A stretch of 62,721 nucleotides of DNA, the filler included, from Atractiella rhizophila (Eukaryota), in assembly GCA_021432655.1 (NCBI GenBank). It is 3 parts of 3 records of this genome, joined end to end, with 100 filler letters (N's around TTAATTAATTAA, not from the genome) between each part and the next. Parts side by side here need not be neighbours in the genome. Positions count along the whole stretch, not along the records: positions 28,643 to 57,090 come from MU271733.1; 2 more parts are not named here. The stretch is one strand, 5' to 3'. The translations under genes were made by a program, and so were the position numbers. Of this stretch, positions 6,812-42,476 are shown piece after piece (position 1 is the first letter of the stretch; the number at the start of each line of letters is the position of its first letter). The notes beneath the pieces are model-generated. The model searched no databases and was not told the origin of the DNA. It saw only the letters and a list, made by a program, of their open reading frames with translations.

Positions 6812-6845
6812 TGGATCCCAGAAAACCTGCCCCAAGAAAGGTTAA

Positions 6846-14810: not shown

Positions 14811-14847
14811 TTAGACAATATGGACCGTCAATCAAGTCAACAGTCAC

Positions 14848-17800: not shown

Positions 17801-18661
17801 CTGAGGTGGTATTTTAAGTGCTGATTGTGGAAATGTGCTGATAACTTGAGGGAAAAGGATTTCAATACACTGGCTCAGTATGATCCTCAGCTGGCCGCTA
17901 CATCTGTAGATGTTACATGCAGCATTGAGAATCCGGTCAATACCTTCATCCATGCCAAACCTGATCCGTTGTGGCGCAAGGTCAATGGAAAGCCAGTTAT
18001 GAAGAAAATTGACCCTCTTCGGTACCACTATCAACGCTACAAGAAAGCGCCGGATGCTGTTGAGAGGAGTTTCCATCAGTGCGCAATGGACATTTCCGCG
18101 GTCCCAGGTAAGTAATTAGTTGTCAATCTGCTCGTGCGGCTCACATGAACATCAGCACACACGGCCGACATCGAACGTAGCTTCTCAGATGGAGGGGAAA
18201 TTGCCACTTTCCTCCGCCTTTCCATGAAAGACGAGACTTTCCGCTCTCAGACCATGTTGAGATTGTGGCATGAACAGGGCATGCTCCCCAGTTTGCCTGG
18301 GCTTATAGGGATGTTGAAGGCTGAGAAGGCAGACAAGATGGAGAAAAGGCCTAAGAAGAAGCAAAAGACCAATGAGAAGGAAGTGATATCCCTATGAGAC
18401 TCCAGAGAACATTTAAAATTATTTTATTTTAATGACATCTTACTAGTACCCTAATCAGCAGTCAATTACAGCCACGTTTACGCAACTTTGTCACCTTTGA
18501 TACACGTCACCGTGGGCTCCCCGCCTCCTCGTACGGTTCCTCGCCGGGGGTACGGAGTCCTCGTCGAAGGAGACGAGGACGGATTGCGGTCTGGACTTGG
18601 GGGCCACGAAACCGCACGGTTACCCCCGCGTCCCCCCGCGGTGGACCGTGTCGATGCCTTA
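14848..18661 (+). mobile_element. hAT DNA transposon
   Basis: Perfect 17-bp TIR TAAGGCATCGACACGGT; 8-bp TSD ACAGTCAC/CCAGTCAC (7/8); GC-rich subterminal repeats. Confidence 0.95.
15170..18397 (+). CDS. hAT transposase (multi-exon)
   Basis: LDGWTSP, ADNAANN, RCFDHILNL, PTRWN and ADIERSFS motifs. Confidence 0.9.
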
Positions 18662-18962
18662 CCAGTCACCCTGCCCTCCCAACTCAAGTCTCTCAATCAA
18701 CACTGCAGGTCGGATCTTCTACAAGCATTCTTCCGACTCGCAATCGTGATGAAAAGAAAGACACGACCGCCGAACAAGGAGTAAGGACACGAGTAAGTGG
18801 TCCAATTTTGCTACACAGTAGTTAACAACAACTTATAGCCGGATTTGAATGTGGCCTTTACCAAGACTGTCCTCAGCTCCAAGCTTTACCCAGTTCGTGC
18901 TATTGGGACACTAGTTCGTCACTGTCTTCTCCGCTCTTCTTTGCACTGACGTATTTCTCTAG

Positions 18963-19595
18963 TCGGAGCCTTGCGAGGAGGTTTTGGAAATTGGAGAAGA
19001 AATAGGCTGGGGAGCATTTGCGACGGTCTTTAAGGCTAACTGGGGGAAAAGAACGGTGGCCGTGAAGTACTTTGACGGTTCGCGAAAGATGCAAGATCCT
19101 AGTCAAACTAATATGGACTACTTTCGAAGAGAAGTACAGGTGTATGAGTGGCTTTCCAGTCTGCAAGGGAAGTACATTCCTAAGGTTTATGGAAGCTACG
19201 AACGAGTGGAGGAGAGATTCGGGAGGGAGGAGAGGTTTGGAATTGTCGTGATGGAGGTACTTACAGGAGCATTTCAGGATGACATTGAGACGGTGTCGTT
19301 GGAAGCTAGGTAGGATTGAACTGTCCGGCTGAGCTATATTTGATGCGCGGCGATTAGACAAAAGGCACTCGTAGCGCTGAAGAAAGTGCACGAAATCGGG
19401 GTGCTTCAGGGCGATATTCGAGTTCAAAACTTTTATTTTGGCTCGGAGAAAGAGTATCTCATCGACTTCTCACATTCTCGAGTTTCGGAATACGGGAGGG
19501 AGTTGAACTTTGAGGAGGAGAAGGCAAAAGTCTGTCTGGGACTAGGCGAAACTACCTCAAGAAGAAATCGGCCAGCTTCTACACGCGAACATGAG
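18963..19595 (+). CDS. Protein kinase domain (C-terminal part of the disrupted nuclease-kinase gene)
   Basis: IGWGAFATVF, VAVK, RREVQVY..L..LQG.YIP, VLQGDIRVQNF, LIDFSHS. Confidence 0.8.
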
Positions 19596-19643
19596 GTATC
19601 GAACCGTTTTGTGTTCTTGACGACTCAATTGACGTTCTCTCAG

Positions 19644-20960
19644 ATGTCATCCATGTCGTGGCTTGAACCCAACAGTGAGCCCAATAGAGGTTTGGAATGG
19701 GTAGAGACATTGTTCGGCTTTGAGCCCAAATGGAAGGAATCCCCTGAGATTACTACTCTAACAACTCTTGCGCGTCGCGTCCTCTCGCTGCCCTCGACCT
19801 CATCGTGCTCCGTCTCCTTCCTTGCCGCAGGCGCCTTCAACAAGTTGTACACCATCTACCACTCTTCCTCCGAGTCCTCGGCTTCAGAATTGTCGCAGGA
19901 TAGAGAACAACAACGTGTGCTCCGTGTTGCACTTCCTGTCGATCCAAAATTCAAGGTACTTTCGGAAGTCGCCACGCTCACGTTCCTTTGTCAATTCTCC
20001 AAACTTGTGCCTGAGCCGCTGGAATACGATGACGGGAGGGATAACGAAGTTGGCTTCGAATGGATGTTGATGAGCAAGGTTGAAGGATTGCCCATCGAGG
20101 AAAGCTGGCGAGCCCTAAATTGGGAGGAGAAGGAAAGAGTCGTTAATGATGTGGTGACATTCTTGGCGGATTTGTTCAACAGACGATTTGAAGGAATCGG
20201 GAGTTTGTTTTGCGATCGTGAAGGGAAAAAGGAAAGCAGTTTCAAGGTCGGAAGAATCGTCTCGATGATTTTCTTCTGGCACAATCACCTCCAATATCCG
20301 ATACCTCGAGGCCCTTTTCGCTCTTCGCACGACTGGTTGGACGCTCGCCTCTCCATCCATCACCTCGACGCCCAAAACATTATTGAAACATGCAAGGATG
20401 ACGACGAAGTTGAATTCGCGCGTGAGACACAAAAACGGCTCGTCCGCCTTCGCACCTTACTTCCGCTCCTTTTCCCCCCTCCTTCCAACGGTGCAAGCGA
20501 AGAAACTGCGCTGTACCACGCCGACCTCTCTTGGCACAACCTCCTCGTTTCTCCCACGCAAAAGACCCTATCCGGAATCGTAGACTGAGAGTGTGCCTGC
20601 ACGCTACCGCTGTGGAAGGTCTGTTCGCTCCCTTCGTTCCTGCTAGGAAGGGAGCGGGAAGAGGAACCAAAGGCCCTTCAATACACGTCTGAAGAGACGG
20701 GTTTGGTGTCAGACTTGTTTGAGGAGCATACGCGAGAGTTTGAGCAGACCAAGTTGCGAAGGTTCTTTTTAGAGAAGATGGAAGAGATAAAGCCAGAATG
20801 GACTCGGGTATATAGGAATGAGATGAGAAGGAGAGACTTTGAAATAGCGATAGAGTATTGCGACAATGAGTTTTGCGCGAATGGAGTGGATCGATGGATT
20901 GAAGCAGTTGAAAGGGGAGACGAGCCGGGGCAGTCTTTGCTTGAAAGATTGCTTTTTTGA
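19644..20960 (+). pseudogene. APH/choline-kinase-like phosphotransferase with in-frame TGA
   Basis: GAFNKLY, SEVATL, HADLSWHNLLV, GIVD*E (TGA 20586-20588 where W is expected); frame continues to stop at 20960. Confidence 0.8.
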
Positions 20961-21419
20961 CAAGTTGTCAGTTGACTTCCTTTTTCGACCAAGGTAGAGA
21001 ATCTTTCATTTTTGCACATACATCTCATTCATCGAGAAGACCACGGGCAGTATGAGCTGCATCAATAGAGAGAACGTAAAAACTCACTGACTAGCAATGC
21101 GCTGATCAGAGTTGTGATCACACCTTGATGCACATGTAACACTTTCCCTTCGTTTGCAGCGAAAGTCAGGTCATGTTGTCATCAGCAGAACCTCAGATTA
21201 ACGTTTAACACTGGTCGACATTCGCCTGTATCAGCTGCACACTGTAAACAATAAACAAGAATATCTGAGCAAGGCGACGCGGAGCGGCATTGTAAATCAT
21301 TCAAGGAGACTTTTCGTTCCTCTCCTACTGTAAAGAAGTTAGGAGGTTCTCCCTTTATGCCTTAACGATTAGATAATGAACGAATTGAAATAATTGTTTC
21401 CTCAACTAGTCAACGTCAG

Positions 21420-23967
21420 CCAGAATGTCAGCCCGCACTGTTGCAAACAATTCCACTCTTGGAGGGAAGCCATGTTGAAAGCTTGAACCCACACCCGCTT
21501 TACACATCTTTCTGACTGGACAATACGTGGGCGTATGAGAAGCGAAAACACATCGCCAGTCTGGCTCTTTGGCAGACAAAAAAAGGTTGCGGACCAGAAT
21601 ACTGTTTTGAATTAACCCCTTCTATTCCCCAAATCGAACCCACTCAACGACAACAATCATTATTTCATACGATTCAATCACTCCTCGCCCTACTCCAATC
21701 CATGTCTTTGACCTCGACCACTGTTCGCCATTTGCTCCAACATCCAGTTTGGCGCCTTCGAACCAAACAAACCACTCTTCGACCACGATCAATTTTGCCT
21801 CTCAGAGGACCTTTCGCAAGGAGCACACCGATCAGGAGTTACACGCAGGATACAAAGATGGAGGAATTGAAAGGTTACGACCCAGTTCAGGTGAGTGGCT
21901 GATGTCGTGCGGAAACTTTGCGATCTGGGAATGCTCGTAACATCTGAACATGTTGCTTGCTGGGTTTCAACACAAGAGAAAGAAACTGGATTTTGTAGAG
22001 CTGCTAAAATGAAACGGTGTCTAGATTGTCTGCCGCGTGTGCAATTGCAGTCGATATGTTTCTTCGAGATGAACCCATACCGAGTTTCATAGTAGGCAAA
22101 CCATTCTTGCATCCATTCAGAGAGGCAGAGGTCGAATGTCTGTGCGAAGGGAGATTCGAAGCGGCCTTCATGGATAGCCAAAGTTTGAGTCTTCTAGACT
22201 ATCTGAGTTGCGTTATTTAAGTGAGCTGGACTAAATTCCACACTATGAGCTTAGCTAGCTCACACTTGCTTCCCTCTCACATTGCTTTGTTCTACTTGTG
22301 GGAGAGAAAGATGAAATGGAGGTAGCTAAAAGGATTCCCGAGTCCTGGGTTTTCGACCAGGAACACGCTTTCTACGTGAATGCACCCCATTCGGCTTGAG
22401 CTTACTTTCATTCGTTGGCTTGTAACGCGAGCACCTACGGCCGCTACCGGTGAAAATGTTGACCTGTAGACTGCTCGTTGATTATGAGCTGATCAAGTCC
22501 CGTGCTTTGCGTTAAACATCTGCCCTGATGCTACACTTCACAGGTTTCCCTCATGTCTGAGCGCCTCATCATGGTGACGCCAGACGATGTTCCGACAGGC
22601 TCAGACTCAAAAGTGAACGGGCACCTCATGTCCAACATCCTCCCTCCCAAGTCTTATCTCCATCGAGCCTTCAGCGCCTTCATCTTCCGGCCTACCAGAA
22701 TGTCAGCCAGCACTGTTGCAAACAATTCCACTCTTGGAGGGAACCATGTCGAAAGCTTGAACCCACACCCGCTTTACACATCTTTCTGACTGCACAATAC
22801 GTGCGCGTATGAGAAGCGAAAACACATCGCCAGCCTGGCTCTTGGGCAGACAAAAAAGGTTGCGGACCAGAATACTGTTTTGAATTAACCCCTTCTCTTC
22901 CCCAAATCGAACCCACCCAACGACAACAATCATTATTTCATAAGATTCAATCACTCCTCGCCCTACTCCAATCCATGTCTTTGACCTCGACCAGTGTTCG
23001 CCATTTGCTCCAACAACCAGTTTGGCGCCTTCGAACCAAACAAACCACCCTTCGACCACGATCAATTTTGCCTCTCAGAGGACCTTTCGCAAGGAGCACA
23101 CTGATCAGGAGTTACACGCAGGATACAAAGATGGAGGAATTGAAAGGTTATGACCCAGTTCAGGTGAGTGGCTGATGTCGTGTTGAAACTTCGCGATCTG
23201 GGAATGCTCGTAACATCTGACCATGTTGCTTGCTGGGTTTCAACACAAAAGAAAGAAACTGGGTTTTGTAGAGCTGCTAAAATGAAACGGTGTCTGGATT
23301 GTCTGCCGCGTGTGCAATTGCAGTCGATATGTTTCTTCGAGATGAACCCATACCGAGTTTCAGAGTAGGCAAACCATTCTTTCATCCATTCAGAGAGGCA
23401 GAGGTCGAATGTCTGTGCGAAGGGAGATTCGACGAGGCCTTCATGGATAGCCAAAGTTTGAGTCTTCTAGACTATCTGAGTTGCGTTATTTAAGTGAGCT
23501 GGACTAAATTCCACACTATGAGCTTAGCTAGCTCACACTTGCTTCCCTCTCACATTGCTTTGTTCTACTTGTGGGAGAGAAAGATGAAATGGAGGTAGCT
23601 AAAAGGATTCCCGAGTCCTGGGTTTTCGACCAGGAACACGCTTTCTACGTGAATGCACCCCATTCGGCTTGAGCTTACTTTCATTCGTTGGCTTGTAACG
23701 CGAGCACCTACGGCCGCTACCGGTGAAAATGTTGACCTGTAGACTGCTCGTTGATTATGAGCTGATCAAGTCCCCGTGCTTTGCGTTAAACATCTGCCCT
23801 GATGCTACACTTCACGGGTTTCCCTCATGTCTGAGCGTCTCATCATGGTGACGCCAGATGATGTTCCGACAGGCTCAGACTCAAAAGTGAACGGGCACCT
23901 CATGTCCAACATCCTCCCTCCCAAGTCTTATCTCCATCGAGCCTTCAGCGCCTTCATCTTCCGGCCT
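21420..23967 (+). repeat. Tandem duplication, ~1.27-kb unit (21420-22693 / 22695-23967) of the IDI1 5' region
   Basis: Near-identical promoter, exon 1, intron 1 and start of exon 2. Confidence 0.97.
21702..22693 (+). pseudogene. IDI1: 3'-truncated IDI1 duplicate
   Basis: Exon 1 and exon 2 up to HRAFSAFIFRP, then the junction into the second unit. Confidence 0.85.
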
Positions 23968-24612
23968 TCCGATGGTCGTTTGCTCCTTCAGAAGAGGGCA
24001 GACGAGAAGATCACGTTCCCTTCGATGTGGACAAACACCTGCTGTTCGCATCCTCTCTGGCTTGATGCAGAGCGCGAAGAAAAAGGCCAGATGGGCGTGC
24101 GTAGAGCTGTACAGAGGAAGTTGCTTCATGAGCTAGGCATACCGTTGGAGACGATCAAATTGGACGAAATGGTTTATGTTACGAGGATTCACTATCTCGC
24201 TCCGAGTGATGGGAAGTGGGGAGAGCACGAGAGTAGGTCTTGCCCTCTGTCAGGTGGGTGAGTGGAGGATGCTAACAAAGGCATGAAATAGTCGACTATG
24301 TTATGTTCATCGTTGCCGATGTTCCCCTTGAACCAAGCCCGAACGAGGTCTCTGATACGAAGTATGTATCGAAAGACGAATTAGAGGCGTTTTTCAAAGA
24401 TCCGCGTAAGTTCTCTGCTGTAAAGGTGTCTGCGTCTATTGAAACTGAGAATAGAAAACTCTTTTACTCCCTGGTTCAAGCTGATTGCTCAATCTTTCCT
24501 TTACAAATGGTGGGACCATCTACTCGAAGGTGGCAAGGCGGATTTGGAACGCGTCAAAGGATTAATCGAAAGTGGGGGCGAGCGTGATACTATTCAGAGA
24601 ATGGTGGAATGA
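22975..24612 (+). CDS. IDI1: Isopentenyl-diphosphate delta-isomerase (type 1)
   Basis: LHRAFS, LLLQKRADEKITFPSMWTNTCCSHP, WGEHEIDY, FTPWFKLI; introns 23164-23817, 24233-24291, 24406-24454; intron-1 acceptor reads CGG. Confidence 0.95.
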
Positions 24613-24987
24613 AACCTGCCGTGAATTTATTGGGACTACATTTACCTTTAATGGAATTCAAGGAATTATTTGCGTTGTCATACGTTGTGCATTCGCGACT
24701 GTTATCAATGACTAAGTCTCGGTTCACGGCGCTCCCATTGATGACCCAAATTATTGTTTGCAGGACAAAGGGAAGGAAAGAGAACGTATTCCAGCGTGGT
24801 ACCGAAAAAACTTTTAACAAATCCGAGACGATGAGAAAAACACGAGGAACATAACATCTCTGATGTTGCGCAGAAATCGAAACAAACCCGAGTCTCAATA
24901 TTAAGCGATATATACTAGTACCGTACATCATCAAGTATAACGATAACAATTCACCCAATTTCGATTGTTTCATTTCGTTGAGAAAGC

Positions 24988-26580
24988 TCAAGATGTGATG
25001 GACGAAGTGCGAGATATTTGAGGATACGACACTTGATAAGCGTTTGGATTGCTCGATATATCCTTCCCTCCAGTGAAGCCAGGTCCCTTGATGGGGACAG
25101 CCTTCTCGTCGTCACCCAACTCTTCTGCAGCTGAATGTTCCTACTCCCCGATAAGCTGTGATGGAAATAAGGATTGAATACGAACTCTTTCGACCTGTAC
25201 GATCGTTTCATGCTGGACCGAAATGGCATTCATGAGCATGCTCGGTGGGTTTGCCATTGACTTCGGGCCACTAGTATTTCCCGGCGTAGTGAGGGATTCC
25301 CTCATCAAGAGATTCACAAGCAAGGTGATGGAGTAGGCACGGCCAAGATTAAAAAGAATGCCCGTCGGTACATTACTGAGATATATCAGCAGAGGACGTA
25401 GCCGGGAGCAAGGTACATACGTTGCATTGTTCTGCAAGTAAGTTATCAATGCTGTGACGGCAATCTGAAGAGAAACGTCAGTCCAAGTTAACCTGAAGGG
25501 ATGCGACATACTACGGCTGTTGGTGTACTAGTCTCGATTGCAAGCAAGCACAATGCTGCAATCAGTTTTCTAGTCTCTGTATAAGTAGGATATGTCAGAT
25601 ATCAGTCCAGAGAAGAAAGCGAAATCCGACGCACGTTGAAGTTGCTGCCAAGATCGGTAACGCAGAAGGTGAATAATCAAGGTAGCAGCAATCACGACAT
25701 CTAAACTCAAAATCAGAAGGTTTGTAAGTCACATAGATCGACTAACCACAGAGAGCCTTTGTTCCTGCCCATAGAATTGCCGGAATTTTGATATGGCCTC
25801 TTTCCGTGTATTCCGTGTACTTGATAACTGTGGCAGAGAGCGCGATAGAACCTGCAAAAGCGAGGAGGGCTAGAACTGCCAATAGGCCAGTGACGATGGG
25901 GTTGCGTGATAGGCGGAGGTAACGCTGAATGAAATAGCTCTGAACAATGATGGCGACGCTGGCTAGGGTGGGGTCAGGTACTGGCTTTTCGTTTGAAAAA
26001 GTATGAACCTGTAAGAAGAACGTATGCGGGAAATTGCCACCCTGCAGTCTATTTGTCAGACTTCACTGACACAATAGAACAAGACTTACCTTGACGTAGT
26101 AGATATGCTTCATTTCCCCAATTTGTTACCGTGTACCCATAAACGCCTGACGGTGGTCAGAAAAAGAAAACAAAAAGAAAGGAACCTACAAGACATTGTC
26201 ACAGCAGTACACGCCGTATCGAGGATACCGCACTGAGCCACCATCAGTTCGCACTCAAAAATGCGAGAAATGGACGGACGAGAGCAACAGCCGTTCGCAA
26301 CAGGAATCCGTCCCTCGAACGTGACCTCGAATAGTACAGGTACACCATGCACCTGTGCAGTCGAATTAGACGACCATCAAAAGATACAATAAGCAGATAC
26401 ATTTCCAAACCCCATAAAGCGGCGTTTGTCCTGTTACAGGTCAGCAAACTGCTTAATCACCGCAGTGCACTTCTCACCAGGTCCCAATGACTGTAAAGAC
26501 GTCAGACGGTATCCCACAAAAAGTGAAGCCTTCGACTCACCGATGGGAATAACCACCACTTTTAAGGCTTCAGAGGGCAT
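24988..26580 (-). CDS. DUF6534-like multi-pass membrane protein
   Basis: Spliced N-terminus MPSEALKVVVIPIVIGTWTNAALWGLEMCMVYLYY; C-terminal YSITLLVNLLMRESL; TATA at ~26660. Confidence 0.7.
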
Positions 26581-28542
26581 ATCGAAAACGTCAACGATGG
26601 TTGCTTGAGATGAGAGAGGGACTGTGGTTGCCTGGTTCGACGTAGAATTTTTCACCCCTTATATATGAATGGGCACATTACTGAGCTGTCGCTTCACTCT
26701 CCAGATCCTACAAGGCTAAATCCACTTGTTCTGTTGCTCTTCGGTACGAAATAAATGGCTTGTGGTGCTACTCCACCACGATCTGTCAGGGGAACCAAAG
26801 TTGTTCTGTCGATCTGCAGTAGTGTTGCCTGAATGGACATCTGGGCCTTCGGTGCACAGTTCTGGACGATTCTGGACGACTGTGCCTGAGCGGAGGTTGC
26901 AACGGATGATGGGTGATCGGGTGGATGACTCTGAGAACCTACCCACATCGCCCCGTTGACCTCCGTGATAAACAGAGATGGATGTAGTGAAGATGGTTAG
27001 ATGGTTAGAAGGGTTAGAAGGAAGACTTAAGTTCTGAAATTTGAATCCATAAAGATAGATCAATACATTGTCAGCCAAACTGGGCTCGGCCTGGTCAGTG
27101 TAACTAATGACGCCAAGGGTGATTCCGAAGTCCCTCGAAATGAGGAAGAGCCAGAACCGAAGGGTTTGACATTTGAAAGTGATGACTGTTCTGCTTATCA
27201 GTCGATCCTTCTCCATTCAAGCACTTCATGAAGGAGGACTCGCGGAGTATCATGAGCTCAACAAATTCGATGGGCTAGACTGACCCTAGCCGTACTCTAG
27301 ACGACAAAATCTGATTTCTTGGAGCAGAAGCATCTCGAAGTTGTTGCAGTTCACTACCATTGTCAGCCCTTCTGCATTACTCATACCCGATTCTCTTCTG
27401 CTACTTCCGTGATCGCCCTTTCAAGCGGATGATTGCTCCGTGCACCACACAATGGCTTCAAATACATCAACATCCACTGGTAATACCGACGGAGGTCACT
27501 ACATGCATATTCTAGCTTGAGAAAGCTCAGTGAGAAAAGCTCAAATTTGCAGGTATCAGAAAAACAAGCTCCAAATTTCTGCTAGCACTCACTCGCTCAG
27601 ACAAGTGAAACTTTCAGGACCGGATCAATCAGCCGTTCAGCGTTCACTGGTGATAACAAACTTGTCCAATAATGAATGCGGTCACGTGGGGTCCGTTTAA
27701 CAGCTTGTAAAAGCCAAGTGTAGAGTGCCACACAAATGCAAAGTAGCAGGCAGGCAATATCAATCAAGTTTCATAGGACTCCAACCCAGCCATACTGATG
27801 CCCGCAATTCCGAATGATGTCGCATATGTAACACGCACCCATATGTTGCAGATATCTTTGTGCGATGTAGACATGTTTTGAGGTCAACCTGCTTCCAGCA
27901 AACTCTCTCCGCGAAAGTAAGACACCGTCCCGACTCCAGTCTGAAATATGCACTGGTGGAGGCTTGAGCTCACCAAGAGAAGGTTGTTTTCCGCGCATGC
28001 TTGGCGGAACCGAAACAACTTTCGGCTTGAAGCTTGATGGGTGGGACAGAGGACTCGTTCTTGCTTCCTTAGAGGTCTAGGACGTGATCAAGAGATGAAA
28101 CAGGGCGAAATGGAGCATTGGCGAAGGACGTGAGTGATGAGTACGCCTTTACATCATGATCTTGGTTTCGTTGCAGTGGGCATTAGAACGCATCTACGGG
28201 CCTGCAAGTCCCTATTTCCCATTCTACCTCATGGACCCGATTCTTATAAAAGCCAAACTTGAACCCCAAGATCTGCTAGGGTTTCATCTGCACTTCTGTC
28301 ACCCCGATTCAAATGGTCTAGGGTTACCTGTATGTTTATGTTATGAGGAAACCTGCTCCTTTATGCTGTACCTGGTGCTCCTTCCATAGTAGCGCAGATT
28401 GCGCTCATTTTGATGGCTGCATGAAAAGTTGAAGAGAGACGAGTAGCAATAGGCTGGTAAAAGCCTTTTCTTCATGAATCGAACAGTTGTAATCCGCCGA
28501 TGTCCAACATAAACACATTGCAAGACGGCTGTTTATCCAAGT

Positions 28543-28642
28543 NNNNNNNNNNNNNNNNNNNNNNNNNNNNNNNNNNNNNNNNNNNNTTAATTAATTAANN
28601 NNNNNNNNNNNNNNNNNNNNNNNNNNNNNNNNNNNNNNNNNN
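28543..28642. other. Gap with artificial TTAATTAATTAA linker
   Basis: N runs flanking an all-frame stop spacer. Confidence 0.95.
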
Positions 28643-28644
28643 TT

Positions 28645-28848
28645 CGATACAAAGGGTATTCACCATCTGAAGACGAGTGGATCAACATCACAGATCTAGA
28701 AAACTCACAAGATGCCATAAAAGACTATCACACTGCACATCCCCTCGCAGTTCGTCCCGATTCCATACCGAACTCCGCCAAAAATCGCCCAAATGCACGT
28801 TTCCGTAACCTTCGACGAAAACGCGCTGAAGGGTCTTCTTCACTTTAA
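28645..28848 (+). CDS. Pol C-terminal chromodomain (partial)
   Basis: RYKGYSPSEDEWINITDLENSQDAIKDYH...*. Confidence 0.85.
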   Translation, partial: RYKGYSPSEDEWINITDLENSQDAIKDYHTAHPLAVRPDSIPNSAKNRPNARFRNLRRKRAEGSSSL

Positions 28849-29212
28849 GGGGTCCAACACCCCTATATGCCTTGCCGGGTGAAATCCTAGTCTTTGATAC
28901 TTAGGTCAAGGCAAGGCGCCGACTTGTTCCTCAACGGACAAGTCGGCGACTTGGTCGTTGGTGAGTCCATTCGACGCCCGTCAAAGACGAATGCTCATTG
29001 CGTTCTCGCACCATCACCAATGTCGCATTTACGAAAATCGCCCTCAATCGCGAGGTCCCCTCCCCCTCACTTTAAGAGGTCCTACTCCTCTACATGCCTC
29101 GCTGGGTGAATCCCTAGTCACATTGTTGAACATAGGTCTAGGCGAGGCGCCGGTCTGTTCCTCAACGGACAGATCGGCGACCGGTTTGTTGGTGAGTCAC
29201 TCACGCCAGTTC
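28841..29212 (+). ncRNA. Two tandem copies of a candidate structured RNA element (28841-28982; 29068-29212)
   Basis: Multi-hairpin fold with compensatory substitutions between copies. Confidence 0.6.
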
Positions 29213-29691
29213 CGCAAAAACGGTTGCTTATTGCACGAAAACAACACCGGTCAAATCCCAAAAAATCCCTCAATTGCGAGGTACACAACGCCCCCTTTCA
29301 TCTCACGCCCTGTTCTGGTTTTGATGTTTATGGTGTTCTATTTTTTGCTTTTATCCTTTTTGTTTCCCATTTTTGTTCGCTCGACAACACACTATCCCAC
29401 AAAAAAGACAGACCGGCGGCGAACATGCAAACCGCCGACACGTTATACTGCGCGTTGTGTCCACGAACGCGTGGCCCAGGCCTATTTGGTTGCGAGCTCC
29501 ATAATAAGCTTGGGTAGCTAGTGGGAGGAACGCCTGAGGGTCCTCCCCTAGACAGGGGAGTGTGAGTCCCGCATCACTCACTTTGCCATTGATCTCCCCA
29601 CTCACCACAATGCCTTATGCCATCACAACACGATTTACGCTTGTCGCCGCCTGGCAATTCGCCGCTAATACGGAGTCACAAAACATACATT

Positions 29692-31397
29692 TCAAAGCTC
29701 AAAATCGCCGCTCCGAATAGATTCCTCACTATCACTACTACTCGAAACAGAATCAGAATACACATCGAAATTGGAATTATCATAAGCCTCCTGAGCCAAC
29801 GAAGGTTTCAAGTCGCCGAGTCGGAACTCGATTTCGCCGATGCGACGACTTTTGTACAGCTGGCGACGAGTTAGGTGCCCTACGATGCCTAAACAAACAT
29901 CTGGAGAATCAGACGGATCGCCGAAAAAACAGATGAACTCACCCTACCAGTCACATCGGCTATCACACCTTCCAGCACAGAACCCTCACTAGCCCCATCC
30001 TCCGCAACACGTTCATCCTGCCTCCTTTTAAACAATTCCATTTGCAACTCGGCGGCCTTAAGAGCATCCGCCGCCGCTTGCGCATTTAACCTGGCGGCCT
30101 CGAGCATCGTGCGTGCGAAATCCATGCTGAATGCTTCGGAGTACAACCGGGCGTCGCTCAGCATAGAATGCGAGGGAGAGTCCTCGTCGGCGTCCGACAC
30201 ATTCTCATAATTGCTCTCGGCGAAAGCTGACGGACGTTTTCTCCCGTCGCCGATGCGTTTAGGATGGAAGGTAGTCGACATCACGACCAGCATAGAGAGT
30301 TCCCGCAAATAACCCAAAGGCAAGACCTCACACCTCTTTCGCGAACTGTGACAACGCGAACAAACCCGACCGAACGCGGTTGCAACATGCCCAGCGGAGA
30401 AGTCACACACTTGAGATTCGTTGTCGGCCTTAGCCTTCTTTTTCGCCGCTTTGACAGGTGCCGCTCGAATTTTTCCGGTACAATTACTACATCGCTGCGT
30501 TCCGATGCTTGCTAACGTGGGGAGGATGCGCGGGTTCGCCCGAGGAGTCATGATAACCAATTCGAGTTCCAATTCACCCAGATTGATGTTCGCCGCAGCA
30601 TGAGAATAAGCCTCACGGGTACCTGGCCAGAAGTAACGATATTTCGCCGCATCTAATTCCTTGTCGCCGATTCGCACTTTTCCGTCGCGCACTACGAATT
30701 CGGCGACCGGCGCACCGGCGAACGGATTTCGATCCCCCAACGCTGCAGGCAGAACAAAGGTTGTCGCAGTAACCAGATGGTCAGATAGAGTCCTCACAAC
30801 CCCAACCTCGGGTCCTTTCACCGCCGAAATCGACTTTTGAGCACGCAAATTTTCTTCCGCCGCTCGTCGTTTATTTTCAAGCGCCACCCGTTTGCGTTCC
30901 TCTTCTTCCTTCGCCAAGCGTTTTTTTCGTGTCGGACAAGAAAAGCTCTCGTTCTTTCCTCCGCAAAACAGGGTCGCCATTCGCCGACTCGGAGGGCTGA
31001 AACCCGAGTCTCACCGCTTCCTCCTCGACGAGCGCCGCTTGTTCGGCCCAAAGACGAAGTTCATCACACAACGCCTGCAGACCTTCCACAGGCATATGCA
31101 GAGGAAATGACAAAACCCGTCCATCACCGAAACCTTTGGCAGCCTCATAAGCCATTCGCACCTTCCCATCGCCGACGAGTTACCACACAAAATATACGAG
31201 ACAAGAAAACTCACCTCTGCCTGCACCTCATCACAAAATTTGACATACAGAGGGTAGCACCTTTTCCCCCACTCCAGCACATCGGCGAAACGCCCAAAGT
31301 TCACCTCCTTCGCTTTCTCCACGTCCCAGAAAATGGTGCTCTCCTTCCTATCCTTGTTCGCCAGAACGAAGTCGAAGAGTTGCGCATCGGTCGACAT
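29692..31397 (-). CDS. Antisense spliced gene inside the retrotransposon; coiled coil plus Zn2Cys6-like motif
   Basis: MSTDAQLFDF..., GT donors at ~31214 and ~29945, CSNC-x24-C-x14-CSRC-x6-C; one frameshift in an A7 run (30921-30927). Confidence 0.65.
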
Positions 31398-31520
31398 TTT
31401 TGCAAGAGTAGACGGAGGGTGATGGTGGTAGAACTGGAAAATTTTTCGCCCAAGCTAGCCGCAAACCTTAACTTTAAAATTCCGTGACTCACGTACACGA
31501 GTCAGAAATTTGGGGGGTGT

Positions 31521-32010
31521 TGTCAGGCTTGCCCCTACGCATTACCGAAACGCACCATCTGAAGTCACGTGACCCACTTTACCATGCCATAGGACCACGC
31601 GCCTGCCCATCGCCGCTTTGCTCACGTTCTTGCTGATCGCCGCCTTCCCCTGTCTCACACGAATCGCCGCTCAGCGAACCTTATACATTTCGCCGGTCTG
31701 CACCGTCTCCATTAATGCTTTATTGTCCTTTCTCACTTGTACTGCTCAGTATGTCTTATTTCCGAGTTTTCCTTTTATTGCTTTCCTGATCTAGCTATCT
31801 TACATGTTTCAAGAAACTTATGATACAGTTTATGGCAGTGCTTTTACATATGTATATATACATCGAGATGTAGTGGTGGTGACCTCAGAGTATTCTCTTA
31901 GGTTTACCTCCACTACAGGTTAGTCTTCTCATGCCATACTATTCCCTTAGGTTTACCTCCACTACAGACGCATCGCCCATCGGCGACCGCACATAGTGTC
32001 AGCCCTAACA
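31521..32010 (+). repeat. 3' LTR
   Basis: TGTCAGG...CCCTAACA after the PPT; 3' part shared with 32742-33218. Confidence 0.85.
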
Positions 32011-32575
32011 TATAGGCATCCGCCTCTGCCATCACTGTCCCTCCTATGTACACTTGAGTACCTCGAACTTGCTGATATCTGTCCACTCTGTTCCTCCATC
32101 TTAGACCACCCTCTGCCACCTCTTCTAGAAGAGCTCAGAGTCCTGCTCACCCCCTTCTCTGCCGATGGAAAGACCTCCATCCTACCCACTCCGCTCGACC
32201 TATCACACCTCACATGCCTCACCAAGCTGATCCTGGACAGAGGCAAGAAATTCAAACCTTGTTCCTTGCCAGTTCTTCAACACTCTCAAAAACACAACTG
32301 GGATGTGTACAATACGGCTTGTGTACTGTGTGGTGGACTCATCTGACTGCCCAGACTTCATCCGCTGGTTCTTTGGGGATTGGTGGGTGAGGGGAGCTGA
32401 GCAGGGGGATCAGGTCGATGAAGACGAGATAGAATGGGATTCTGAGGTTTGTTTATTCTTTGGGGAGTGGAGCGAGGATGAGATTGTGAATGCGAGGAGT
32501 AGGGTGGAAAAGTATACATGGAATGAGCAGTCTGGCATTTGGGATCCTGGGGAGGGGCTGGAGTACATTCCGTAG
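32011..32575 (+). pseudogene. F-box/LRR family C-terminal fragment cut by the LTR
   Basis: PPLPSLSL..LPPLLEELRVLL..GKTSILPTP..FIRWFFGDW, homologous to the other copies; frameshifted. Confidence 0.85.
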
Positions 32576-32741
32576 AAGGCACAGTCTGATCCAGGCTCCA
32601 AGTACGAACCGGCTGCATCAAACTCCTAGCTCTCATATTCTACTCAGTAGCCCTCGATTGAAGGAGGTCCAGTGAACATGAAATACCTTAGAGTACATTT
32701 CCAACCATTTTGTATGAGTAGAACACTGTTGATCCTACCTA

Positions 32742-33218
32742 TGTCGGGCTGAAAAGGTATCAGGTTTGCATCTTACGCAAATCGGTGCCTGTTTGCCGGA
32801 CTGCGTCTTCTATCGCCCATTTGTGTTCCCCACGAATCGGCGCCCGTTTGCCCGTTTGTATTCAACACAAATCTGCGTCCTGTCGCCTATTTGCATGCCG
32901 GTCGCCCGTTCGCCTATTTGCAGCTGCATCACCACTTAGCCCAACTGTGTCTATTCTCCTCTTATTAACTCCACGTAATCCCACTGTCACTTCCCCCTTT
33001 TTAGTTCTCTTACGTATTTCATCTGCTCTCCTCTACACTCTGTGGCAGTGTTATTCCACTTGTATATATAGATCGGAGGGTAGTGGAGGTGACCTTAGGG
33101 TATTCTCTTAGGTTTATCTCCACTACAGGTTAGTCTTCATGTCATATCATGTACTTTGGTTTATCTCCACTATAGATGCATCGCCTGTCGGCGACCGCAC
33201 ATAGTGTCAGCCCTAACA
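32742..33218 (+). mobile_element. Solo LTR related to 31521-32010
   Basis: TGTCGGGCTG...CAGCCCTAACA; last ~180 bp closely similar to the other LTR; no TSD. Confidence 0.75.
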
Positions 33219-34841
33219 AAAGGATTACATACGAACAAATATGGAAGCCTTTGTTCAATCTCCAGTTCTTCAAATTAATGGCCACATCCATCTCTTTGCT
33301 TTGTCTTCATTCACTGTTAGAGAATCTAGAAGAATGGAGCTAGTCTGTGAGTATATCACCGTAGTGTTTCACCAATAAGGAGAGCCAGCGGAGTCAGTGG
33401 TCGAGCAGCTCCTTTGGCAGCGAAGCCTTAAAACAATCTGGTTAGATATTGAAGGGAACTTAGCATCATCTGGAAGATGAACCCGTATGGAACCGTGCAA
33501 ACCGATATAGACCTTCGGTGCAATGATTGTGTCCCTTCCATTCAAAGTCTCACATATCCTGCACCTCTTGCAGCTTTACATCTACGATTAAACCGGCGTC
33601 TTGAGGAATGGCATGGTAATTGTTCTTGCCTCTCATGCTGTAGGCTGTGGATCCCCTCTAGCTTGCAAAGTAACATTATGGGCTGCGCTGGCGAGAATAT
33701 CTTCCTGGCATTATCAGAATGGAGCAGCGCCAGCGTGTTCCTCGTCACCATTGGACTGCTCACCATCTACAGACGCATCATAGATGGCCTCAAGCTGTTT
33801 GAGAATAGGCTCAGAAGTACATTATCTTTCATCCTTGGAAAGAATCTTGGGATAGTCGCTGATTGTTTGTCTCTCCCAGTCTTCGAGGTGGGAAACAGAT
33901 ACTTATTTCCTTTCGAATGGCCTCATCACTTCCTCACTTGATGCGAGGCAGAAGATGAGCTTGGAGTCATCTCGACTGAGCGAGTCCTTCCTCCTCTCCT
34001 TCGACGAATGACCGCCGTTTGAGACAGCAGCAAAACAATGCCTCACAATCCTGGATAGTCTTACGGCTCACTCTCTCAGGACAGGAAGAGGGAAGTACGC
34101 GAAGGAGAAAGACGACTGAGCTGGTCATGTAAGGTATTGTAGTTCGAACGTGAAATGAAGGATGATGAGAGATGGAGTGGAGGATGACAAAAGTGATAAA
34201 GGATACTGAGTAGTTAGGGACACATAGCTGAAGGCGAAGGGAAAGTCAGAGAAACGTAGATGGAAGAGGGAGCAATTTGCTGGATGTCATTCGTGAGTAA
34301 TTAAGACCACAATATCTTGCGAACATACTTCTCTCAAACCCAAACTGAGACTGATATTTCCTCTTCAAGGCCTTCTTCTCCTCTGCCAAATGGCGCGAAC
34401 CTCTCAACAACATCAACTCCTCTTGTCCACTGCTTCGCCTTCTATCCATGAGAGAACCACCGCGGCGTTCATTATCAGGTCCCCTTCCTCCTCCAGCAAT
34501 TGGTGAACTAAGTCAACTGCTCATTGCAGCGTGGGAAAGGCGACGGAGGAGTAACAAACCAAGGTGTTCACAACTGGAGGTACGGAATCTTTGCAGACAG
34601 GTCGAACATTCGTTCCCCACATCCCCTTGAATCACTTCATTCATTCTCAGAGTCACCCTTTGCGCACACCATCTGAAAACTTGTCGTCGTCCTCCTGAAG
34701 TCCAAGTTTTCCGCTTTAAATAACGATGTCCCTCTATCGCTAACAAGAACTGATCCACCTGTCTCCCCATTCTTCTTCATTCTCCCAAGAACCTGTTCAT
34801 CCAGTTAGTTTCGCGGCTCGGTGGATCTTTGTTGTCAAATC

Positions 34842-36468
34842 ATGGTCTCAGTCGTCAGGATGAGAAGGAAGATGAGAAGAGTGATTTGGATGAGAAGGCT
34901 GACGATGAGGATGCCAAAGGCTTATGATGTGATTAAGGCACAATTTATTCTCCACCTTCTTTCTTCACTTCTAATGTGGGTCATGGGATTAGTCTGCCGT
35001 GTCTTCTCAAAAGATGAAGGCACTTGTCCATGTCATCACCACAAACGACCTCCCAGATTTGATTTACCTCTCCATTCTTCCATCTTTCCTGTCTCGCCTG
35101 CCTCCGTCAGCTCGCACGCTCTGGATTTCATTTGGTTCATTGGGTTCCGAGTGGAAATTTGGAAAGCGGCCCTCACGATTGTCCTATTTATCACTTGAAC
35201 GGGTCGAGAATGTGGTCGACAAGGATGGCGCAATTAATCTTCGTGTTACTATCCACGACGGAAACGTCACAGTAACCTTTTTGGACGTTGAAGGGCAGCA
35301 GTCGGCTGTCAACAGAGCTATCAAAAGAGTTTTGCGTGATTCACGTGGCGAACAGTATTGTTATTCTTGCGTGTTTCCTTATGTTCGCGAGAATGCTATA
35401 TTCGCCCGCATAGCCTCATATTCCGAAGACAAACGGTGCTTCGTCCCCGTCAGTGGCCACGATTCGTCACGCTTCCCACCCTTCCACGCAGCCAGTATCA
35501 TACAGCTCTCTTTTCCACCTCCACATGTTACTTCATGCTCGATCTCATCCTTGCCTGTGGAGGTCCTCTCTCTCATATTTAGTTTCTCCGACCCTGCTCT
35601 CACCCTTTCTGCCGTATGCAAGCTCTGGAAGGCCGTTGCAGTTCCTTATTTGCAGGAACCTGGTTCTGTGGCAGAAAAGTATGAGGTGTTGAAAAGCTAT
35701 CCTGGTGCAGGACGACTGTGGGATAACCTGAGGTTTAACACAAGGATGGATCATGGGACGGTGAAAAAGGTCATCGCAGGCTCGCCGAATGTCACAAAAG
35801 CAGATATAAGCGCATATTGGAATGAAGCGGAGGCGAAGATTCTGTTGAATGCAATTGAAGGCTTGCAAGGGCTGGATGATGTCACGTTTTGGCAGGGTTC
35901 GAGAAAGTGGAGGAAGGAGGAGATCGTGAACTTTGTTCGGAGGATGGGTGACAGGATCAAACGGCTCTCTGTTTACGGCGCGGAGGACTCTCCCGCTTCA
36001 GCTTCAGCAGGCCTTCACTTATCTTCTTGCCTCGAATACCTAGACCTCTCCAATTACCCGCCTGTCCCATCGCTCTCCCTCCCACGCACCATCAAGCACC
36101 TCGAACTCCTCAATATGTGTCCACTCCCTTCTTCCATCTCAGAATACCCTCTGCCGCCTCTTCTGGAACATCTCACAATTGTGCTCGTCCCCTTCTTTGC
36201 CGATGGAAAGACCTCCATCCTACCCACTCCTTTCGACTTCTCACACCTCACACATCTTACCGAGCTGTACCTCGACGGGGGTGAAGAGACGTCAAACCTC
36301 CTTTCTCACCAGTTCTTCAGCACTTTTAAAAATGCAACGGTGCTACGTCTGATAAGGCTTGAGTACTGCGTAGTCGGCTCGTTGGAATTCCCACGCTTCG
36401 CCCGCTGGTTCGTTGGGGATGAGTCCATCAAAATAAGGAAACGGGTTAATGGAAATGGCATAAGGTGA
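34842..36468 (+). CDS. F-box/LRR protein, copy with a premature TGA near the C-terminus
   Basis: SLPVEVLSLIFSF..VCKLWK F-box, LxxLxL repeats; putative exon 1 34842-34937; homologous frame continues past TGA 36468. Confidence 0.85.
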
Positions 36469-36599
36469 CGTCTTCAGGTTCGTTTATTCTTTGGAGAGTG
36501 GAGCGAGGAGGAGATTGTGATTGGAATGAGTGCCGTGGGGATGCGCAGAAGGAGCGAAGGGTCAGGCGTTTGGGAGGGTGGGGAGGACAACCACTTGTG

Positions 36600-39500
36600 G
36601 AGACATAACGGGGCTTGACATAGGACTCCGGACTCGTCACTCTCGCTTGCCGTACCTGACGACTGTCATTGGACACGACAGAACCCCCTTCTACCGCCAT
36701 GCTACCATTTAGATCACGACCCGTTGGTTAACTAATGCATATACAGCGTGGCACAGAGTGGCACCTTTCCCTTTCCGTGAATGTGGAACAAGGCATCTCA
36801 TTCACACCGCTGGCATGGTGGGTGTGAAAGCAATAAGGAGGCAGTTCTGCCACTTGTTCTTCTTAGGAACGAGTCCAAGGGGTTAGGGTAGCACGCATGA
36901 AAGAGATTTTGAATGTATGTAGTTTAAAGAACAACCGTGATCAGAGGGAAGTACATCTGCTCACCTGCTGAAGGAAGATTAATGCTTGGTATGCCTGGAG
37001 TTCCTTACAATTGCCTTACATCTGAGTTGAAGAATTGAAGAATGGTGCATAGAACTTTAGATTGAGTTGGCGACACTCCCCTTACTAGCAGGCAAGCCCC
37101 TTGGTCCATGCAAGCTTCATCCGATCTGCTCTGCCCAATTGGGCATTGGAAGGAGAGCTATGTTGGAGATACAGCAGATTCCTCCCGGATTGGTCACTTG
37201 TTTGATTTGACGTGAGATCCCCAAAGGCATCAAAGAAAAACTTCAAGACTTCTGCCTGGAGACCAACATGCGAGTTGTGCGCTCAATATAAAGACCACAG
37301 GTTCTTCGGTAACAGCACTTCGGTTTAAAGCATAAGATGGAATTGAAGTGCATAGTTGCCTACAGACATAACCCGTCCACTAGCCCCACCACCGATTTCT
37401 TCTTCTTGGTGCTCTTGTCAATGACCTCCACCTTCAGACCTTCCCCAGATAACACCACTGACCAACACCGCAAACTCGAAGAGAGGACTTCCCTGGAGGA
37501 CTCTGTTGAGCTTCTCTGGCAACAAGAACGAGAGTGTAAAGGTAATTTAAGCATCGGATCCTGAACTTAGTGGCGGGTTGTGTGGAATCGAGGGTTGGTT
37601 TCTTGGTGGCGGAGGCGACTGATGGTTTGGCGTTTGCGGTGGATACTTGCGCTTTATGCGAGGGGCCGAAGACGTCAAGGCGAGCATGGAGTCCGCACGC
37701 GCACATCTTCAGAAGGTTGCGCACCATGCTGTCTACTCCTGATTACTCCTCTTTCACTCATTAGTTTGTTGTCTGCGTGGGATGATGACGCTTTGACAAA
37801 GCGTTGGAAGTCGAAAGGATGAATGAGCGGTTAACTTTGCGTGATCCCGGGATGGCTGGAGTCCAACAAGTCGCCGCGTGGAGGTGACGAGGCGCGTTGC
37901 GGGAACGGATGGTAGACCTAGCCGCACAACGTTGGAATTGAGAGAAGAGCTGGGCGCTGTGGCGCTGTGACACTGAGCAATTCGGAACGAGTACTATTTT
38001 GAATGCTGGAATGACGTCGTCCTCCTCTCCTTCGACAACCCAAAGTCTTTCGTCCCTCCCACCTCGCGGTCCCAAACCACTCTCCACCACGCAAATACGA
38101 ACCACTCTTCGAGTCCAGCTTCGAGTCCTCGCTAACTTGAACCATCACCTCTCTCCACACTTAAATCCTGTCTCCACCCACCTACATCGTCAACGCCGTC
38201 TCTTTCGCCTTCACTTTCGCTCTTGACGTGCCGCACCCGACGTACCCAGGTGCTTCCAACGAGTACACGAAGCGGATCTACTCCCACCGCGCGACCGAAT
38301 ACCACAGGAACACTCCATCCTTTCTCCTTCCCTTTTGTCCGGATGGAGCCGCGGGAGCTGTCTTTCTGTCAAGATGGTTTGAAAGGTGGCAAAGGGAGGT
38401 GGAGGGACGGCGAGATGGATCAGCCGAGGTGGGCTTGGTGACGGAGAAACCGTAGGAGGAGGCGGGCAGGTTTCTGTTGGACGGAGGTGTGGTGAGGAGC
38501 AGGGGTTGAGGAGCATAGGGGCGGCGAGTGCTGGAGAGGGGACAACATCGCACCACTTACTGTCCGTCTGCTCTTTCGCCTGAGGGCGTCACATAACTGA
38601 CCGCAGTTCTCTGTAGGACATTGGTATGGACGACGTCTCTCGTGAACCGTTCTGCACACCGAACATCCTGCCCTCCACTATCCTCCTCTCTCTCCACTTT
38701 GAGAACTCAGTGAGAGACACGTCGAGGGACCACCTTTCGCTTTTGCCATTCAGCCCTCCGACTTCCCCCAACCGGCTCGCTGGAACCATTCGGGGAAAGG
38801 CCCCCTCATTCTCTATGTCTTTATTAGAAGAGGCGACGGGCGGGATTCCGGAAGTGGGGAGGAGGAGGGGAATTCTTTGGAAAGCGGGAGCAGGTGTTGA
38901 GATGGAGAGTGATGTCGAGGAAATGAGAGGATGAGAGGATGAGGATGGATTTAAGAAAGGATCGACCAGGAGGAAAGGGAGTCGGGATCGGAGGGTTGCA
39001 TGGGAGAGAACAGGTGCTGCATTGGTGCTGCTTCTTTCAGAATGAAGAGCCCTAGGCCGCTTAACGTGATGCGATAGCGATTGCGTGGCTCTCTGGTTGA
39101 CGAATGAGGATGGGGAGATGGAACCGGGAAGGTCATACGAATCACTCTCTCTTCAGTTTTCCGTACATTTACCCTCTTTCGTCTTCACAACGCTGATACA
39201 AGCGATGTGATGGAACAGGATACAGGAGCTGACATTGCGAATCTCTGGCGCCTGGGACGTTTTCCAAAGGGGATGACTCACACGTTCGTGTCAGCAGTGC
39301 CGGCTTCCCCAAGGATATTCACATATGCGACAACGTAGGAGCATGAAAAGATGAATGGCCCACCCGGAGGCGATTCGAAAGATGGCACACATAATGTTTC
39401 CTGCTGCCATTGAAGTTTCAAGCACTGCTATTCTCATATCGCCCTATATCAGAGCACGGAACTCCATCCTTCAACAATCGTATAAGAACTCATGCAACAG

Positions 39501-42088: not shown

Positions 42089-42476
42089 TGTGGAAGGCAC
42101 AGTCTGATTCAGGCTCGTTACTGGATCAGACTCCGGACTCTCACATCGCTCTGAGCAGCCCATGATTGATGGCGGTGGCCGTGAACATGAAAGAGTTCGC
42201 GAGTGGGACTTGTACACTCGTTTTTGCTAGCCAAGTAAATGCTTAGATTACGAGTTGGGAGGATACCACTAGGGCATCCCGACGTTCAAATGATTGTTAA
42301 CTAACTCGTTGAAAAATTGTACATCAAAGGTCTTTCGCTGAGAGGATCCTTTGAACTGTGAATAATATGATCTACAGGAGCAAGCAAAGAAGAGGCCTCT
42401 CATAAGTCCAGTCAAGTCCAAAGCTGGCCATTTAGCTCCGCCATCAGCGCATTGGAGATGAACTCATTCACGCTTA

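Follow-up and report, generated by a model that had tools for sequence, protein, structure and literature searches.

Tandem exonuclease-resistant RNAs (xrRNAs) are found behind the polyprotein stop codon of flaviviruses, the xrRNAs of plant viruses form a pseudoknot between a loop and downstream sequence, and the CTE of MPMV has a two-fold internal repetition. Structured RNAs in the spacer that separates the ORF from the LTR can decide the mobility of a retrotransposon; a recent example is the ENE of Evade, described as a structured RNA in an unusually long ORF-LTR spacer which makes the RNA more stable and increases mobility (PMC12501189). For plant Tat/Ogre elements, tandem repeats in the 3′ UTR have been ascribed to illegitimate recombination or abnormal strand transfer (PMC7004042). 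As for fungi, TE-borne RNA motifs are largely unmapped; a published screen of RNA structure is described as having avoided transposable elements (PMC8216456), and a term search of a second one gave no mention of them (PMC5640933). In the titles and abstract openings of the papers returned by literature searches, no element of the kind reported below is described for fungal chromoviruses.

We analyzed a stretch of 62,721 nucleotides, filler included, from Atractiella rhizophila (GCA_021432655.1), referred to here as the window. It holds a structured module, present twice in tandem, between the end of a retrotransposon ORF and the presumed 3′ LTR. As a kind, structured cis-acting RNAs located in the 3′ spacer of LTR retroelements are known, and the fold of this module matches no described family. 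The reading that we favor, with a probability of about 0.4, is that of a selected cis-acting element of the genomic RNA, which would most likely serve RNA stability, export or expression.

Genomic setting and tandem units

The middle contig of the window (MU271733.1) begins at 28643, with the structured repeat at its very start, and all that it shows of the element is the final 67 codons, about 700 nt of spacer and the first part of the 3′ LTR. The features of this region are (positions are those of the window):

28543..28642, no strand: contig linker N44-TTAATTAATTAA-N44 (sequence); sequence left of it does not physically adjoin the repeat
28645..28848, + strand: ORF fragment, 67 codons plus TAA stop, chromodomain end (Pfam and library matches)
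29041..29056, + strand: 3′ end motif of unit 1, CCCTCAATCGCGAGGT (MAFFT)
29267..29282, + strand: 3′ end motif of unit 2, CCCTCAATTGCGAGGT (MAFFT)
29283..29522, + strand: rest of the spacer, with a U-rich tract (about 29340-29385), not significantly structured
29523..29547, + strand: 7-bp hairpin GGGAGGA / TCCTCCC just 5′ of the polypurine tract (sequence)
29550..29560, + strand: polypurine-tract-like AGACAGGGGAG (putative, from sequence)
29561..29858, + strand: presumed 3′ LTR start, TGTGAG... (depth drop and divergence of copies from 29562/29563)
57091-57190, no strand: second identical linker (sequence)

The codons of the ORF fragment occupy 28645-28845, and its TAA stop 28846-28848. Residues 1-29 of the fragment align with the C-terminal half of the Pfam chromodomain (Chromo, E 2e-4); the score of 21.7 bits is under the cutoff of 25.1 because the contig start cuts the domain. 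A HMMER search of 1.84 billion representative proteins gave nine matches to the fragment at E<=1e-3, the best at 2e-10. PF00385 is present in seven of the nine, and in two of them SH3_Tf2-1, the SH3 domain of Tf2-type integrases, lies just N-terminal of the matched part. The word-index search among longer proteins returned no homologue of the fragment. We read it as the probable integrase C-terminus of a chromovirus-type Ty3/gypsy element. The original prediction had placed the structured RNA right after a retrotransposon Pol stop: the stop is there, and what can be seen of Pol is merely the 67-codon chromodomain fragment at the contig start.

A polypurine tract followed by TG is the usual start of a 3′ LTR. 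Downstream of the ORF, AGACAGGGGAG is directly followed by TGTGAG (29550-29566), and the presumed start of the 3′ LTR was placed there from one LTR. Position 29858 is merely a possible ...ACA end of this LTR. Given the end of a chromodomain ORF and a PPT-TG arrangement downstream of it, the host element is therefore best read as a high-copy LTR retrotransposon, probably a Ty3/gypsy element of the chromovirus type. Elsewhere in the window are tandem F-box-like genes and one ankyrin-repeat gene, and a nearby APH-like ORF resembles fungal protein clusters of Ascomycota and Basidiomycota alike.

Between the ORF stop (28846-28848) and the PPT-like tract (29550-29560) we find two tandem units of ~227 nt each, at 28841-29067 and 29068-29290. 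When the region was compared with the window by blastn, 28840-29001 aligned with 29067-29234 (77.06% over 170 columns, E 1.25e-28); MAFFT gave the same register and extended the homology to a unit of about 227 nt. Within the unit, the 5′ ~130-145 nt are well conserved, and the tail of ~85 nt is poorly conserved apart from a 3′ motif common to both tails, CCCTCAAT.GCGAGGT (29041-29056 and 29267-29282). The unit starts 5-8 nt upstream of the stop codon, so that copy 2 carries a silent copy of TCACTTTAA. The duplication was not reported by Tandem Repeats Finder, and it is absent from the 20 of 36 direct-repeat families listed. The sequences quoted in the original prediction are all found where it located them, and its two copies are real; their length of ~145 nt has to be replaced by a repeat period of ~227 nt (28841 to 29068). 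Two coding explanations were rejected. Readthrough of the stop would add 13 codons before a TAG, and a coding repeat is incompatible with a period of 227 nt, which is not a multiple of 3, and with indels of 4 and 2 nt which shift the frame.

Fold of the module and known RNA families

Folding of the single copies and of their consensus gave the following elements:

28839..28965, + strand: module copy 1 (single-copy and consensus folds; z -5.03)
28839-28844 with 28960-28965, + strand: copy 1 P0, tentative (predicted)
28848-28852 with 28860-28864, + strand: copy 1 H1 (predicted)
28869-28876 with 28910-28917, + strand: copy 1 H2 (predicted)
28918-28929 with 28936-28947, + strand: copy 1 H3, loop CUCAAC (predicted)
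28968..28993, + strand: tail hairpin of unit 1, CATTCG / CGAATG (sequence)
29066..29196, + strand: module copy 2 (single-copy and consensus folds; covariance-model match of 164.5 bits, by construction)
29066-29071 with 29191-29196, + strand: copy 2 P0, tentative (predicted)
29075-29079 with 29087-29091, + strand: copy 2 H1 (predicted)
29096-29103 with 29141-29148, + strand: copy 2 H2 (predicted)
29149-29160 with 29167-29178, + strand: copy 2 H3 (predicted)

H1 (5 bp), the outer stem of H2 (8 bp) and H3 (12 bp) are predicted in each copy and in the RNAalifold consensus of the two. H3 starts immediately after H2, the interior of which is inconsistently predicted. P0 pairs YUCACU with GGUGAG and appears once a few upstream bases are added to the fold; its 5′ strand corresponds to the last two sense codons, and the stop codon lies between P0 and H1. 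It is absent from the predicted fold of all 465 nt, and for this reason we regard it as tentative. Each module would thus be a multi-helix junction made of H1, H2 and a 12-bp H3 stacked directly on H2, followed by a small hairpin; P0 may close the junction, in which case the stop codon would sit inside it. The 465-nt tandem region folds with z -6.32, and none of 100 shuffled sequences folds as well, versus z -1.42 and 14 of 200 shuffles for the rest of the spacer.

The loops of H1 are UCCAACA and UCCUACU, and that of H3 is CUCAAC. These loops bear on the possibility that the module is a replication signal, acting in packaging, in dimerization or as an aid to reverse transcription (strand transfer, primer docking or 5′-3′ cyclization). 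Such a role could claim the same structural evidence as one in stability or export; in addition, the module is located next to the PPT, in a 3′ part of the genomic RNA that is single-copy, and two copies could mediate RNA-RNA contacts between co-packaged genomes. It is also known that 3′ cis signals of Ty-type elements occur near the PPT. However, neither the H1 nor the H3 loops include a self-complementary one, and none contains the G that is typical of nucleocapsid-binding loops. We consider a replication signal unlikely, albeit the most probable of the rivals to the stability, export or expression element.

In both copies, CAAC of the H3 loop can pair with a GUUG located 21 nt 3′ of H3; all four pairs are invariant and so provide no evidence for or against a pseudoknot. 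A stem-loop whose loop pairs downstream could stall a 5′-3′ exonuclease and leave a stable 3′ fragment, as xrRNAs do, and the tandem arrangement of the modules, starting at the stop codon, as well as the possibility of the CAAC/GUUG pairing in both copies, would fit this idea. Against it, the four pseudoknot pairs never vary, and no xrRNA family was matched at E<=10; we consider an exonuclease-resistant RNA very unlikely. A T-loop-like hairpin had also been proposed: the GGGTGAA(A/T)(T/C)CC words are indeed retained, and they do not form a hairpin of their own in the consensus fold.

The suggestion that the module belongs to no described family holds in Rfam 15, which gave no match at the gathering threshold over the whole window. 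With the threshold relaxed to E<=10 on 28643-29700, just two minus-strand matches appeared, both meaningless and far below gathering (PsiU6-40, 23 versus 48 bits; mir-1677, 16.6 versus 84 bits); no ribozyme, xrRNA or ENE-type model matched the module even at this level. A self-cleaving ribozyme may come to mind, the module being a compact multi-helix junction of ~130 nt carried by a retroelement, and hammerhead or HDV-like ribozymes are present in other retroelements (PMC4209133, PMC5680766). Nevertheless, besides the lack of a match to any ribozyme family at E<=10, known catalytic core words were not seen by eye, and the template for replication would be destroyed if the RNA were cut upstream of the PPT and 3′ LTR; a ribozyme is exceedingly improbable. 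A tRNA-like element was rejected, as ARAGORN found no tRNA or tRNA-like gene in the window and the GGGUGAA.. word is no separate hairpin in the consensus, and so was an ENE triple-helix element, the consensus fold being without a U-rich internal loop. The U-rich tract at 29340-29385 falls in a large unpaired loop of the fold with z -1.42.

Compensatory change and copies of the family

Across H1, H2 and H3, all 25 pairs are canonical in both copies, with four double changes (G-C to A-U, U-A to C-G, C-G to U-A and U-A to C-G), two one-sided changes to G-U and no broken pair; P0 contributes one further change, from U-G to C-G. The two sequences behind this covariation are the two tandem copies. 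Taking the minimum free energy (MFE) structure of copy 1 as an unbiased structure of 40 pairs, copy 2 keeps 33 of them and breaks 7, which are located in the inner part of H2 and in the last small helix, neither of which is conserved. In 200,000 simulations on this structure, with substitutions matched to the 25 observed differences (15 transitions), the probability of at least four double changes was 0.0017 and that of at most seven broken pairs 0.19. For the three main stems, which were chosen post hoc, 500,000 simulations gave P = 4e-4 for no broken pair and a joint P of 4e-6 with at least four double changes. The shuffle control of the covariation tool has a floor of 25/500 with two sequences. 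The differing columns number 18 of 80 among paired and 7 of 47 among unpaired positions; the stems differ as often as unpaired columns, so the constraint is on pairing and not on sequence. These results demonstrate, for the two copies, that selection kept pairing rather than sequence, and they bear out the earlier claim that the helices are preserved by paired changes.

The strand is indicated by the same fold. The consensus energy is −50.4 kcal/mol on the + strand versus −40.35 on the − strand, and copy 2 alone gives −50.1 versus −41.0. On the − strand, 24/25 and 22/25 pairs are canonical, with 1 and 3 of 25 becoming A-C. The + strand of the fold is the sense strand of the ORF. Thus, the original proposal that G-U pairs favor the + strand agrees with a consensus that is ~10 kcal/mol better on this strand and with the A-C mismatches on the other.

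Copies of the element were examined in Logan contigs of four public sequencing runs, X1 (organism A), X3 (a soil metagenome), X5 (organism B) and X7 (organism C), aligned to 28643-29900 at a likeness of at least 80%. In total, 17 public runs matched, none of them recorded as RNA. X1 was the best (0.51 of words); it may be the window's own source sample, so it is not independent, and the contigs of X3, X5 and X7 are short and of low depth; stretches left uncovered by X5 and X7 carry no information. On 28643-29900 we counted 642 X1 contigs, whose summed word depth was 21,000-40,000 in the ORF part, 24,000-45,000 over 28853-29188, 4,500-9,800 over 29189-29356, 11,000-20,000 over 29441-29566 and 1,800-7,100 over 29567-29900. 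The hairpin at 29523..29547 sits in a local peak of this depth. One contig joint starts at 29562/29563, and several loose ends are found near there. The element family is thus very abundant; likeness among the copies is greatest across the modules and the PPT region, with divergence setting in at the presumed LTR start.

This profile is relevant to the idea that the LTR starts right after the stop codon and that the units are duplicated promoter or enhancer DNA of U3. Tandem repeats in U3 are common in LTR elements, and the units have 1.1-1.7 times the depth of the ORF part. On the other hand, there is no PPT followed by TG at 28830-28850 and a good one at 29550-29562, where the copies begin to diverge; moreover, compensatory and G-U changes point to RNA pairing and not to protein-binding DNA. 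U3 enhancer repeats are therefore highly improbable.

A two-unit layout is a trait of the family, given a 300-nt soil contig (X3) covering 28841-29140 with 5 differences and several X1 contigs which cross the junction of units 1 and 2. In addition, a 297-nt X5 contig covers 28711-28999 with 7 differences, and an X7 contig of 191 nt matches 29064-29197 without a difference before running into another tail; over the module, these short X3, X5 and X7 contigs show 95-100% identity. The alternative tail of X7 is a 6-bp hairpin (TGTCCA...TGGACA), and the same tail occurs in 5 X1 contigs. A hairpin therefore follows the module, and the sequence of its stem differs between variants. Among the 20 of 663 pieces listed, one X1 contig skips 28784-28989.

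Turning to single positions, the 40 best-supported of 124 variants are listed, and among these 9 fall in the 198-nt ORF part, all 9 at third codon positions, indicating that the family evolved under coding constraint. Another 3 lie within the 372 nt of 28841-29212, whereas the next 688 nt downstream contain 28; the low density in the module rests on these 40 of 124 variants, the ranking of which is unstated. C at 28839, present at all X1 depth and also in X5, changes the outer P0 pair from U-G to C-G, and T at 28974 (all X1, X3 and X5) gives the tail hairpin CATTCG/CGAATG a seventh pair. C at 28927 is the commonest base in X1 (10,500 of a depth of 16,160) and is found also in X3; it turns the tenth H3 pair into a C-A mismatch, unless the partner change is among the variants beyond the 40 listed.

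With these data, the possibility can be weighed that the repeat is a by-product, that is, that the palindromes are functionless and the paired changes arose by chance or by template-directed correction of quasi-palindromes. In Ty3/gypsy elements, template switching in the course of replication often lets tandem repeats build up in the 3′ spacer. The possibility gains from the fact that 3′ UTR repeats are reported as common in plant Tat/Ogre elements (PMC7004042), that there are two copies only, and that the shuffle control reaches just 25/500. However, the double-change rate (P = 0.0017) argues against it, as do the one-sided changes, which are all G-U on the + strand and A-C on the − strand and are not expected from the perfecting of a DNA palindrome. 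Furthermore, the listed variants give no sign of hypervariability of the region within the family (3 of 40 in 372 nt), and the window and the soil contig share 98% in each unit, against a distance of 23% from one unit to the other. Altogether, a functionless tandem repeat seems rather improbable compared with the selected element.

Finally, the variable tails are bounded by G|GTGAGT (28961/28962 and 29192/29193) and CTCAAT.GCGAG| (ending at 29054 and 29280), which raises the possibility of a spliceosomal intron or, for GGUGAGU, of a U1 snRNP site. Both units carry a perfect, unchanged heptamer resembling a 5′ splice site, and a conserved CTCAA..AG follows ~90 nt downstream with a variable interior. 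Nevertheless, the 3′ site would be GAG instead of YAG, the branch-like word is off the consensus, and P0 offers another explanation for GGUGAG, as its 3′ strand; a weaker argument is that 0 of 7 joints in the DNA contigs remove the tail intervals. An intron or U1 site is thus very doubtful indeed.

Searches for relatives beyond these runs gave the following results. The covariance model R1 found just the two copies in the window. Three 16-mers had 21, 16 and 5 loci in viral contigs, all seed-length only by blastn or the covariance model, and a gapped pattern had none there. In metagenome contigs a gapped pattern of this kind gave 16 loci, of which one was aligned by blastn over a 22-nt, seed-length stretch; three G+C-rich soil contigs scored 10-14 bits with the covariance model, driven by the seeded words. 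The single locus in GTDB genome contigs, in an Anaerolineae MAG, had no covariance-model match, and none of 33 matches of the ORF-fragment protein pattern in viral contigs was confirmed. Two of the search patterns (viral and metagenome) demanded T at 28927, where most X1 contigs have C, and the metagenome scan may therefore miss relatives.

Proposed role and comparison with known systems

From the structure and its position, established above, we infer that the module functions as a cis-acting signal. The two units would be tandem copies, now diverged, of one structured module that acts in cis and that the full-length (+) RNA carries after its pol/integrase ORF and before the PPT and 3′ LTR. 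By binding a protein of the host or of the element, the module would act post-transcriptionally on the intronless full-length RNA and enhance its stability, its nuclear export or its expression, and two copies would add avidity. A post-transcriptional role is ranked first because known structured elements at this position, the ENE, CTE and MTE elements of other LTR retroelements, act in this way. The rivals follow, in descending order of probability: replication signal, functionless tandem repeat, xrRNA, intron or U1 site, U3 enhancer and ribozyme.

If the module supports stability or export, it would represent a new portable post-transcriptional element for fungi and a handle on the expression of intronless retroelement RNAs; it is compact, duplicated and carried by a very abundant family. 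In several basidiomycetes, expression has been reported to depend on introns (PMC3744415, PMC4935854, PMC8379801), and in view of this dependence a role of the module as an intron substitute would be attractive. A bolder version, which we regard as quite improbable, is that the modules are a new class of decay-blocking RNA, either halting 5′-3′ decay at the stop codon in an xrRNA-like manner or recruiting U1 snRNP through GGUGAGU. If so, it would be the first such device described in a fungal LTR retrotransposon, and, for the U1 branch, it would let an intronless retroelement RNA survive in a fungus disfavoring intronless transcripts.

Compared with described systems, the proposed stability, export or expression element comes close to several without coinciding with any. 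Like the ENE of Arabidopsis Copia93/Evade and of other plant and fungal TEs, reported to have repeated sub-elements (PMC12501189), it is a structured spacer RNA. However, the ENE consists of U-rich internal loops flanked by G-C pairs which clamp poly(A), and such loops are absent from the module, which is therefore no ENE. With the xrRNAs of flaviviruses and plant viruses it shares duplicated modules at a stop codon and an apical loop that can pair downstream, but no model matches, size and helix count are different, and the pseudoknot is putative. The tandem duplication between the coding region and the 3′ LTR, which probably arose via template switching, resembles that of plant Tat/Ogre Ty3/gypsy elements (PMC7004042). 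In the Tat/Ogre arrays, though, monomers are hypervariable in both sequence and number, and no conserved fold has been reported for them, whereas here the family retains two units that show compensatory changes and contain few of the common variants listed. Finally, the module is similar to MPMV CTE, IAP RTE and MusD MTE in being a structured cis-RNA near the 3′ end of an unspliced genomic RNA; these elements are mammalian and bind NXF1-type factors, whereas the present one is fungal and has no sequence or model similarity to them.

Third-position variants and hairpins among the family copies

Among copies of the retrotransposon, all nine common variants listed for the terminal ORF fragment (28704-28839) fall in third codon positions, a pattern that points to the chromodomain tail being under purifying selection in these copies. 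Beyond the ORF, the tail of unit 2, the second of the two tandem repeats that each carry the structured RNA module, is replaced by a different sequence in many family copies from 29197 onward, as seen in loose ends of contigs from the public sequencing runs X1 and X7. In the 30 letters seen, this alternative tail folds into its own 6-bp hairpin (TGTCCA...TGGACA), whose loop is similar to that of the unit-1 tail hairpin; judged on these letters, it may represent further covariation. Another hairpin lies close to the presumed 3' LTR, within a local conservation peak among family copies:

29523-29547, perfect 7-bp hairpin GGGAGGA / TCCTCCC, directly upstream of the polypurine tract

Repeated DNA beside the presumed LTR

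29889-31454, minus strand, two ORFs (373 and 147 codons)

No Pfam match was found for either of these ORFs. The DNA that holds them is rich in TCGCCG words and highly repeated in X1, with a summed depth of 3,500-5,500 at 29819-29900. This region may be another mobile element, adjoining the LTR or lying under it.

Composition of the window and its other repeats

6511-6801, gap of 291 N
28543-28642, linker N44-TTAATTAATTAA-N44
57091-57190, the same linker

As the two linkers show, at least three contigs are joined in the window; features on opposite sides of a linker are not genomic neighbours. At 21579-23970 there are direct repeats, 300 and 198 nt long, that are 97-98% identical and separated by 1273-1274 nt; either this stretch was duplicated locally in recent time, or it is a small element flanked by repeats. 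Between 32000 and 57000, an F-box-like gene family is present as four to five diverged tandem copies, spaced about 4.0-9.3 kb and 62-90% identical to one another. Finally, a 100-nt inverted repeat with 94% complementarity, shared by 14715-14814 and 42473-42572 on two different contigs, is probably a dispersed repeat.
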